Shown here piece by piece: positions 2,292 to 4,600 of a stretch of 54,847 nucleotides of DNA (the first letter of the stretch is position 1; the number at the start of each line of letters is the position of its first letter). The stretch lies in assembly GCF_003334385.1 (NCBI RefSeq), contig NZ_QOWN01000031.1. The stretch is one strand, 5' to 3'. The DNA is from Escherichia coli. GTDB lineage: Bacteria; Pseudomonadota; Gammaproteobacteria; Enterobacterales; Enterobacteriaceae. The position numbers and the translations under genes are program-made. Below the pieces are notes generated by a model. It saw only the letters and a program-made list of their open reading frames with translations. It did no database searches and was not told the DNA's origin.

Positions 2292-2489
2292 TTGACAGTG
2301 AGGGCCAGGGAACAAGTGGCGAAAATCGTATCAAAGAATGATCCAGATACAAAAAAAGTGTGGTGTAAATATGGTAAGATACCAGGGCAAGGGGATGGTG
2401 TAAACCTTTTTTTTGTTGGTGAAATTAATGTTACGCATTATTTTATAACAAATATTGGAGCTGGATTGCCTGATGCTTGTGCAGAGTAA
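2292..2489 (+). CDS. Hypothetical small protein
   Basis: 65-aa ORF in AT-rich Rhs-associated DNA; no recognisable motif. Confidence 0.2.
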   Translation: MTVRAREQVAKIVSKNDPDTKKVWCKYGKIPGQGDGVNLFFVGEINVTHYFITNIGAGLPDACAE

Positions 2490-3003
2490 TTGCTTGAATT
2501 AAGAGTCTATCCCATATCGAAGTCGTCAACTTCGTAGTGAGGAAAAGTAAAATTCCTGACTGAGAAAAGACATGTCGGCTATTGTGTAAAGCCATATAGC
2601 TCAGACGATGAATATCTACTCGTATTCAGTTGTTTATTGAGGGTGAGTTCCGACCCTGAAACAACAAATAAAATGAACAGTCAGAGAGTTTACATAGAAT
2701 TGCACTGGTCTTTTACGATATCTGACATTGTGTAATACATATTCAGCCATGCATTAATTAAAATGTTACGTGTTTAATGTGAGTCCCTATCTGAAAATAA
2801 ATAATCCTTCCGGATTAAAATAAATTCTTGCCGGGAAAGAAAGAGGAAATAAACCATTAGCGGAAAACCAGCGGCACGCCAGGGTGACATGCCCCAGTAC
2901 GGCGGCCCGATAGTCCAGGGTTCAGCGGGGGTACTGATAGTCGCGCCGACTGCATCGAGAACTCCATACAACTTTTTACGGAACGTCACCTGATAAAATT
3001 TGT

Positions 3004-3411
3004 TCAGTATCGTCTTTTGAGATTCTCAAGGTTATGGAGTAACCAGACAGAACGGACACCACTGTCGGAGATAAAAACCCCCTGTTTACGCAGCTCGTTG
3101 CTGGCCCGGTGCTGACCATGTGTCGGGAAAGCGACGGCGTAATCAACAACAGCCTGTTCAGTTGCCTCATCGGTACGGTTCTTAAGGTTAGGAGCGCGGC
3201 GACTACGATTAATCTGCGCATCCACACCGCCTTCAGCGACCAGTTCGCGGTAACGATAAAACGTATCACGCGAAACGCCCATGATTTTACAGGCTTTTGA
3301 TACGTTGCTGAGTTCTTCAGCCAGATTGAGCAAACCGGCTTTGTGTTTGATGACGGGATTGGCAGTATGAAGCATGAGAGTTACCTCTTGTTTTGGATAA
3401 GGATTCGACAC
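3004..3411 (-). pseudogene. ylbG: Transposase-like helix-turn-helix fragment (truncated or frameshifted IS remnant)
   Basis: 135-aa ORF with an HTH-like segment (KACKIMGVSRDTFYRYRE); continues in overlapping minus-strand frames 2976-3269 and 2774-2989, suggesting a decayed gene. Confidence 0.45.
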
Positions 3412-3490
3412 TCATATCAAAACCGGTAACTCTCAACCTTTCAAGGCCATGTGTCAGATCAAGTCGCGACTAATACAAATACGTCCCTCA

Positions 3491-4600
<1,110 letters not shown>

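Follow-up and report, generated by a model that had tools for sequence, protein, structure and literature searches.

The DNA considered here lies at positions 2490-3490 of a 54,847-nt window from Escherichia coli (contig NZ_QOWN01000031.1, assembly GCF_003334385.1; 'the window' is that whole stretch), between the tail of an Rhs element and the gene mnmH. Positions 2480-3490 are 100% identical over 1011 bp to positions 529122-530132 of strain MG1655 (megablast against 5426 complete E. coli genomes, the genome set used throughout), where RefSeq gives the order rhsD, ybbC, an RHS core-domain pseudogene incomplete at its N-terminus, ybbD in two halves annotated as small hypothetical proteins, a partial coding sequence on the plus strand at 2856-2951, ylbG, mnmH, allS and allA. 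The partial coding sequence, labelled 'hypothetical protein, incomplete', is presumably ylbI of K-12. On the minus strand, ylbG occupies 3010-3375, is described as 'helix-turn-helix domain-containing protein; incomplete; missing C-terminus' and presumably corresponds to K-12 b0502. Both features are real and already annotated as pseudogenes in K-12. The present analysis adds the retained insertion sequence (IS) coordinates, two deletion junctions, a surviving left inverted repeat (IRL), an apparently mosaic origin and a population picture. With high confidence, 2951-3477 is read as a dead, immobile stump of an IS481-family element, of which ylbG is the pseudogene, joined to codons 1-32 of an Rhs toxin gene that is otherwise deleted.

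Three overlapping minus-strand open reading frames (ORFs) are present at 2774-2989, 2976-3269 and 3004-3411. The last of these, 135 aa long, matches the NCBIfam IS481 transposase model NF033577 (E=2.8e-25, 89.4 bits, profile positions 2-112 of 284); it scores below the equivalog cutoff of 224 bits because two thirds of the protein are missing and only the N-terminal third is there to be matched. The same ORF carries the N-terminal helix-turn-helix (HTH) DNA-binding domain of the family, recognised by Pfam as HTH_29 (E=3.7e-20, residues 23-86) and also as HTH_28, HTH_23 and HTH_32. The GTG at 3411 used by the ORF lister falls in the leader, and the true ylbG start is the ATG at 3375 (MLHT...). 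The original prediction, of a decayed transposase with an HTH typical of transposase N-termini between the Rhs element and mnmH, is borne out by these matches, by the close identity to an intact transposase and by the surviving inverted repeat described below. It had also taken the three frames for parts of one frameshifted gene, which is only partly right. Two of the frames do hold IS codons. The other two ORFs, 2976-3269 and 2774-2989, have no NCBIfam match and were rejected as gene parts, only ~13 codons of 2774-2989 being IS-derived by tblastn. In that frame these first ~13 codons (VTFRKKLYGVLDA, window 2989-2951) match transposase residues ~285-297, and the rest (2950-2774) is the antisense of a plus-strand Rhs N-terminal fragment and of the DNA upstream of it. 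The frame at 2976-3269 overlaps the real coding frame and is an alternative, non-coding frame in this strain.

The extent of the damage is measured against intact relatives. The reference element is the copy between kdgR and yobH (L004), whose ends at L004 611-1811 were fixed by comparing independent copies. The intact element is 1201 bp long and has a 346-aa transposase, 26-bp terminal repeats and 7-bp target duplications (TTTTACT for the L004 type; AGTCAGT for L018 1599-2799, the copy of a second subtype found on an IncF plasmid). The L004- and L018-type 346-aa proteins pass NF033577 with 292.6 and 287 bits, and the L004 protein has the Pfam domains HTH_29 (11-74), rve (162-267) and rve_3 (256-326). 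The terminal repeats of intact copies follow the pattern TGTATTAG(C/T)(T/C)C(A/G)(G/C)AC(C/T)TGATCTGACA.

A tblastn comparison of the intact L004 transposase with window 2400-3500 yields two segments in different frames. Residues 1-122 align at 3375-3010 with 113/122 identical (93%, E=1e-79), and residues 278-307 align at ~3016-2915 (E=8e-10), the real similarity stopping near residue 297 at window ~2951. Global DNA alignment resolves the remnant into two blocks, IS nt 1-467 at window 3477-3011 and IS nt 940-999 at 3010-2951, which together span 527 bp against 1201 bp for the intact element. An internal segment of 472 bp (IS nt 468-939), not a multiple of three, is deleted, and with it the DDE/rve catalytic core, which Pfam places at residues 162-267 of the intact protein. 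The last 202 bp (IS nt 1000-1201), which hold the C-terminus and the right inverted repeat (IRR), are absent from the window. What is kept of the protein is residues 1-122 and ~278-297, so that the DDE core is missing altogether. The damage is an internal deletion and a 3' truncation, not the frameshift first proposed.

The internal junction, where IS nt 467 is joined to nt 940, falls at 3011-3019 on the minus strand, within a 9-nt imperfect microhomology (CAAAAGACG). On its upstream side the ylbG ORF retains transposase codons 1-122 (3010-3375, minus strand, with HTH_29 and HTH_32), followed by one foreign codon (Y) and a stop at 3004-3006. On the other side, IS nt 940-999 (2951-3010, minus strand) encode transposase residues ~278-297 (KTILNKFYQVTFRKKLYGVLD) in a different frame and resemble the second subtype of the same IS group.

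The outer end of the element is complete. The 26-bp IRL (TGTATTAGTCGCGACTTGATCTGACA) lies at 3452-3477 on the minus strand, matches exactly the pattern derived from intact copies and is identical to the right-hand repeat of an intact copy. The pattern occurs once in the whole 54,847-bp window (0 expected by chance), and a search of the whole window for a second inverted repeat, at up to 3 mismatches, finds none. Of the two terminal repeats that characterise the family, and for which the original prediction had recommended a search, the IRL alone is present. It ends at 3477 in K-12, and the next 13 bp, AATACGTCCCTCATTACCGCGCC at 3478-3490, separate it from the mnmH stop codon (3491-3493). These 13 bp are native mnmH-downstream sequence, aligning with the IS-free strains UTI89 and Ec-042-T20 (...AATACCGCCCATCACTGCGCC followed by TTA). 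Because the IRL directly abuts native sequence, the IS end fixes the island's right border to one or two bases. A 7-bp target duplication would have one of its copies in AATACGT (3478-3484), the first seven of these bases; one flank only survives in the window.

Between the IRL and ylbG lies the transposase 5' leader (3376-3451, minus strand), which folds into a stem-loop (arms 3425-3440 and 3370-3385) in which both the Shine-Dalgarno sequence and the AUG are base-paired. The arms are a 16-nt inverted repeat of 88% complementarity, and 2400-3600 holds no other. The leader RNA folds at -31.2 kcal/mol (z=-4.0), and none of 200 shuffles is equally stable. Occlusion of the translation start by a hairpin is typical of insertion sequences, and this hairpin is shared with the intact copies. 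No sigma-70 consensus promoter is found on either strand of 2400-3600, a null that argues neither way on ylbG because IS promoters are often weak.

The leader also accounts for the only candidate non-coding RNA gene at the locus. Window 3378-3549 (plus strand) has a sub-threshold Rfam match to psRNA2 (RF02349; E=4.5e-6, 31 bits where the gathering score is 65), and its well-aligned part is exactly the IS481-family leader hairpin and terminal repeat, with the same stems. The match is read here as an IS end, and it suggests that the psRNA2 family may have been modelled on the ends of IS481-family elements.

At its inner end the remnant runs into coding sequence of the opposite strand. A plus-strand Rhs N-terminal fragment of 32 codons (ISGKPAARQGDMPQYGGPIVQGSAGVLIVAPT) at 2856-2950, with its start ATG changed to ATT, is fused to the broken IS at ~2945-2951. 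This opposite-strand Rhs start was missed by the original prediction. Its product is identical to RhsD residues 1-32 at 28/32 positions (E=3e-17) and has the conserved N-terminal sequence MSGKPAARQGDM.QYGG.IVQGSAGV; the YD-repeat core, the PxxxxDPxGL boundary and the C-terminal toxin tip of Rhs proteins are absent from it. RhsD homology ends at codon 32, after which the frame enters IS-derived sequence and stops at 2991. The fragment DNA is only 79% identical to the start of rhsD, and therefore comes from a different Rhs gene than the resident one. Identity to the 5' ends of further genes annotated 'RHS element core protein' reaches 82%, and the homology takes in ~20 nt upstream. An ancestral full-length Rhs gene with this 32-codon start was not found among the complete E. 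coli genomes, where the matches are only 75-87% identical to other Rhs 5' ends.

Since the inner IS break is fused directly to Rhs codon 32, a deletion took out both the 3' end of the IS and the body of the Rhs gene. This bears on the proposal that the mobile element delivered or rearranged the Rhs cargo. In a limited sense 'rearranged' is supported, with the inner break at Rhs codon 32 and the IRL at the island edge. 'Delivered' is unsupported, because the IS group carries only a transposase, one end is left, the fusion is not at an IS terminus and the Rhs fragment is 79% identical to rhsD.

Upstream of the Rhs fragment, positions 2490-2855 (the ybbD-ylbG 'intergenic' region) form the AT-rich, non-coding tail of the RhsD element, with a G+C fraction of 0.34-0.39 and no RefSeq gene. 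The same fraction holds across 2500-2900, rises to 0.50-0.53 in the IS remnant (measured over 2900-3300) and reaches 0.53-0.60 in mnmH. Segment 2500-2780 had been described as AT-rich and non-coding, correctly: its ORFs are all of at most 50 aa, and RefSeq annotates no gene there. Part of the tail, 2625-2807, matches an RhsE-type locus (L007 6001-6185, in a vgrG / ISEc1 region) at 86%, the match ending 6 bp before an ISEc1/H-rpt copy.

H-rpt / ISEc1, of the ISAs1 family, is the IS classically associated with Rhs elements. Its involvement in 2490-2855 was considered and rejected: homology halts 6 bp outside the ISEc1 copy, and the segment is not an IS end. The arrangement at ylbG resembles the H-rpt case in having an IS copy or remnant at the distal end of an Rhs element, and ISEc1 similarly truncates an Rhs start in the RhsE-type locus, where another copy cuts an Rhs gene ~16 nt past its start, a parallel to the Rhs-start/IS fusion described above. 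The element itself belongs to another IS family, and ylbG has no ISAs1 match. Further back in the RhsD tail, ybbD is a further decayed gene, split into two plus-strand ORFs (1998-2234 and 2292-2489) that match positions 1-64 and 99-163 of the 163-position model NF011298; other strains have an intact 163-aa 'YbbD family protein'.

The interval between ybbP and mnmH is a cargo hot spot whose contents vary by strain. UTI89 has a 58-bp spacer and no insert, Ec-042-T20 has a dinQ-like type I toxin, Z0117EC0055 has an Hcp-effector fusion gene with four DUF2931 genes, and K-12 has the RhsD element. The IS end lies beside mnmH in 2905 genomes and the whole 2480-3490 arrangement is present in 2725. When a chimeric query of the full IS joined to the mnmH end was used (at least 80% coverage), an intact or less-deleted copy at the mnmH site was found in 0 of the 5426 complete genomes. 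As no carrier has an intact copy at the site, both deletions predate the spread of the island among present-day carriers.

Carriers have since accumulated later damage, including IS3 or IS1 insertions in some strains and a common frameshift allele of ylbG. An alignment of five other strains places this last change in a run of five A residues (T5 in the sense of the gene) at 3073-3077, from which one base is lost in the common allele. With that base gone, ylbG continues in the 2976-3269 frame as a 132-aa product (MLHT...RKQGV/LSPTVV...GDVP, the slash marking the change of frame). Strains L013 and L014 lack one A, the corresponding protein (P0088) occurs on at least 1000 contigs, and RefSeq notes it as 'frameshifted'. 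As to the age of the island, 2910 of the 3438 matching records among carriers have the RhsD-tail/ylbG region (2480-3490) at 99% identity or more, and for the adjacent mnmH 3' end (3380-3800) most records (3585 of 5472) lie between 95% and 99%. The RhsD island may be of more recent origin, or have been exchanged more recently, than the core gene mnmH beside it.

Intact and partial relatives circulate more widely. Near full-length copies of the element occur in 76 of the 5426 E. coli genomes, at seven places in one strain. Plasmid matches to the element or its fragments number 919 records (Escherichia, Salmonella, Klebsiella, Serratia), of which only 119 are near full length. Named intact relatives are NZ_CP148401.1 3404575-3405775 (WP_024236841.1, seven places in the genome) and a copy on plasmid NZ_OY856300.1 (WP_125265101.1). 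The window stump is 95.9% identical in DNA to intact copies over nt 1-467 and, with respect to the second subtype, 94% over nt 931-999. It differs from them in having neither nt 468-939 nor nt 1000-1201 nor a second target duplication, and it cannot be mobile.

The type element of the family, IS481 of Bordetella pertussis, has a single ORF for a DDE transposase with an N-terminal HTH, short terminal inverted repeats and a short target duplication, which is of 6 bp. The enterobacterial element differs in making 7-bp duplications; it and IS481 are placed in the same family by NF033577, as distant relatives at family level and by profile rather than direct sequence comparison. In RefSeq and PLSDB the only name for the element is 'IS481 family transposase'.

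Other derivatives of the group are found elsewhere. Proteins of 202 aa from Klebsiella, Salmonella and E. fergusonii (P0009, P0016, P0019 and P0023; plasmid matches H235/H236) have a ylbG-like N-terminus and, after residue ~155, unrelated sequence with rve_3/rve_2 Pfam matches. Some of them are labelled 'ISSod13' by their source; as a set they appear to be further products of deletion or chimerism within this IS group. In a pathogenicity island of E. coli Rb-3, a fragment of the same element (L009 2690-3308), 95% identical to window 3003-3313, adjoins the cnf1 toxin gene amid IS3 and IS66 debris.

The two retained pieces resemble different subtypes of the element. The 5' piece is identical to the L004 type at 448/467 positions (95.9%) and to the L018 type at 399/467 (85.4%); for the 3' piece the order is reversed, with 65/69 (94%) for the L018 type and 56/69 (81%) for the L004 type. 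The two subtypes are 88% identical overall and near-identical at both ends. From these comparisons, either the progenitor would have been a recombinant (mosaic) element, or the 'internal' deletion would have joined two copies in direct orientation. The second course is a variant of the stump reading in which two IS481-family copies lay near mnmH, perhaps bracketing Rhs DNA like a composite transposon, and a deletion between them left the present structure. It is a tentative possibility, on the unlikely side. The subtype split of the two pieces and the circulation of both subtypes intact in E. coli speak for it, but a single mosaic progenitor explains the same data, and the near-identical ends of the subtypes would favour recombination. 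No genome with two copies at the site was seen in the set, and the 3' piece is only 69 nt long.

A quite different reading is that ylbG has been domesticated as an HTH-only protein that binds the terminal repeats of incoming IS481-family elements, or another operator, and acts as a trans-dominant inhibitor or small regulator. Truncated transposase derivatives do act in this way elsewhere, as inhibitors or regulators (IS1 InsA, Tn5 Inh). Residues 1-122 can still be read without interruption behind the native Shine-Dalgarno sequence, AUG and leader, and the 1-bp frameshift allele, too, keeps HTH_29 whole, its product changing only past ~residue 99. About half of E. coli genomes carry ylbG, and near full-length IS copies are in only 76. 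If the reading were true, ylbG would amount to a chromosomally fixed 'IS immunity' contributing to the rarity of intact copies (76/5426 genomes, 0 at the site).

The pattern of substitution leans the other way. Compared with active copies, the 122 codons have 5 synonymous and 9-11 nonsynonymous changes, a ratio of nonsynonymous to synonymous rates (dN/dS) of 0.54-0.66, where two active copies compared with each other give 0.22. In five other carriers, 4 nonsynonymous changes and 1 synonymous have arisen in the ylbG ORF, plus the frameshift. The direction of these substitutions, whose counts are small, suggests relaxed constraint or neutral decay. Against domestication stand this 4-to-1 excess within the species, the free frameshifting of the C-terminal quarter in a major allele, the treatment of the gene as a pseudogene by RefSeq and the lack of a promoter-like site in 2400-3600. 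Vertical inheritance of the RhsD island as a whole accounts for how common ylbG is; phylogroup confounds the scarcity of intact copies, UTI89 and other B2 strains being without the island; and the neighbouring DNA is routinely disrupted with no effect reported. The domesticated regulator is accordingly judged highly improbable. An intact small regulator with no IS homology, the finding that would have overturned the original prediction, is not what lies here: IS481-family homology is strong at both the protein and the DNA level, with an inverted repeat adjacent.

A (near) full-length transposase gene inactivated by frameshifts only, across frames 2774-3411, can practically be dismissed: two frames do hold transposase codons in different frames, and a true 1-bp frameshift in another allele does link 3004-3411 to 2976-3269, but only 142 of 346 residues are represented, nothing in any frame of 2400-3500 corresponds to residues 123-277 (including rve) or 298-346, 2774-2950 runs antisense to the Rhs N-terminus, the span is 527 bp rather than 1201 bp, and the missing 674 bp of the IS are not found in the window, which has one inverted repeat and no further IS homology.

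The stump reading implies the following history. A 1.2-kb element with the features of its family (an N-terminal HTH binding 26-bp terminal repeats, a DDE/rve core and 7-bp target duplications) would have landed 13 bp past the mnmH stop codon, where the variable ybbP-mnmH island has its right-hand edge. One illegitimate deletion, at the level of microhomology, would have removed IS nt 468-939 and with them the whole catalytic core. A second of the same kind would have removed IS nt 1000-1201 with the IRR and almost the whole of an adjacent Rhs gene oriented toward the IS, leaving 32 Rhs codons joined to an internal IS position. The IRL, the leader hairpin and a 123-codon HTH-only ORF would be what was left over. 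With no DDE domain and only one end, the stump cannot transpose, and it apparently evolves neutrally. Conceivable residual roles are an HTH-only peptide that binds IS ends, which is highly improbable, or a patch of homology for recombination with incoming copies.

Several points weigh against this account. The substitution counts (5 synonymous, 9-11 nonsynonymous) are too small to prove neutrality. The 123-codon HTH ORF is open in this strain, with a Shine-Dalgarno sequence, AUG and leader, so that expression of an HTH-only peptide is possible. The homology, coordinates, junctions, lone inverted repeat and population distribution are observed directly; the order of the two deletions, their mechanism and the involvement of one or two IS copies are inferred from the present structure. 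Finally, some database proteins 86-89% identical carry the label 'ISSod13', which is unverified and leads only to papers on Francisella, Legionella and similar organisms; the name was not adopted.

In the literature searched, nothing was found on the function of ylbG, whose only mentions are in tables or as the flank of a landing pad. The gene is sometimes labelled 'DNA-binding transcriptional regulator' (PMC12844343; also in database names). The anatomy instead shows the first third of an IS481-family transposase, accompanied by one surviving terminal repeat; the correction matters little beyond annotation hygiene. The gap between ybbD and ylbG serves K-12 engineering as a neutral landing pad or integration site (10.1101/2020.01.04.894907; PMC2847246), and the anatomy of the locus supports its continued use as such. 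The fixed, shared breakpoints are a convenient phylogenetic marker for the RhsD island. The ylbG/ylbI stretch is genomic debris of an ordinary kind, lying where a variable island ends, and the fused Rhs start documents a second Rhs gene that was once in the ybbP-mnmH hot spot and was later lost by deletion.

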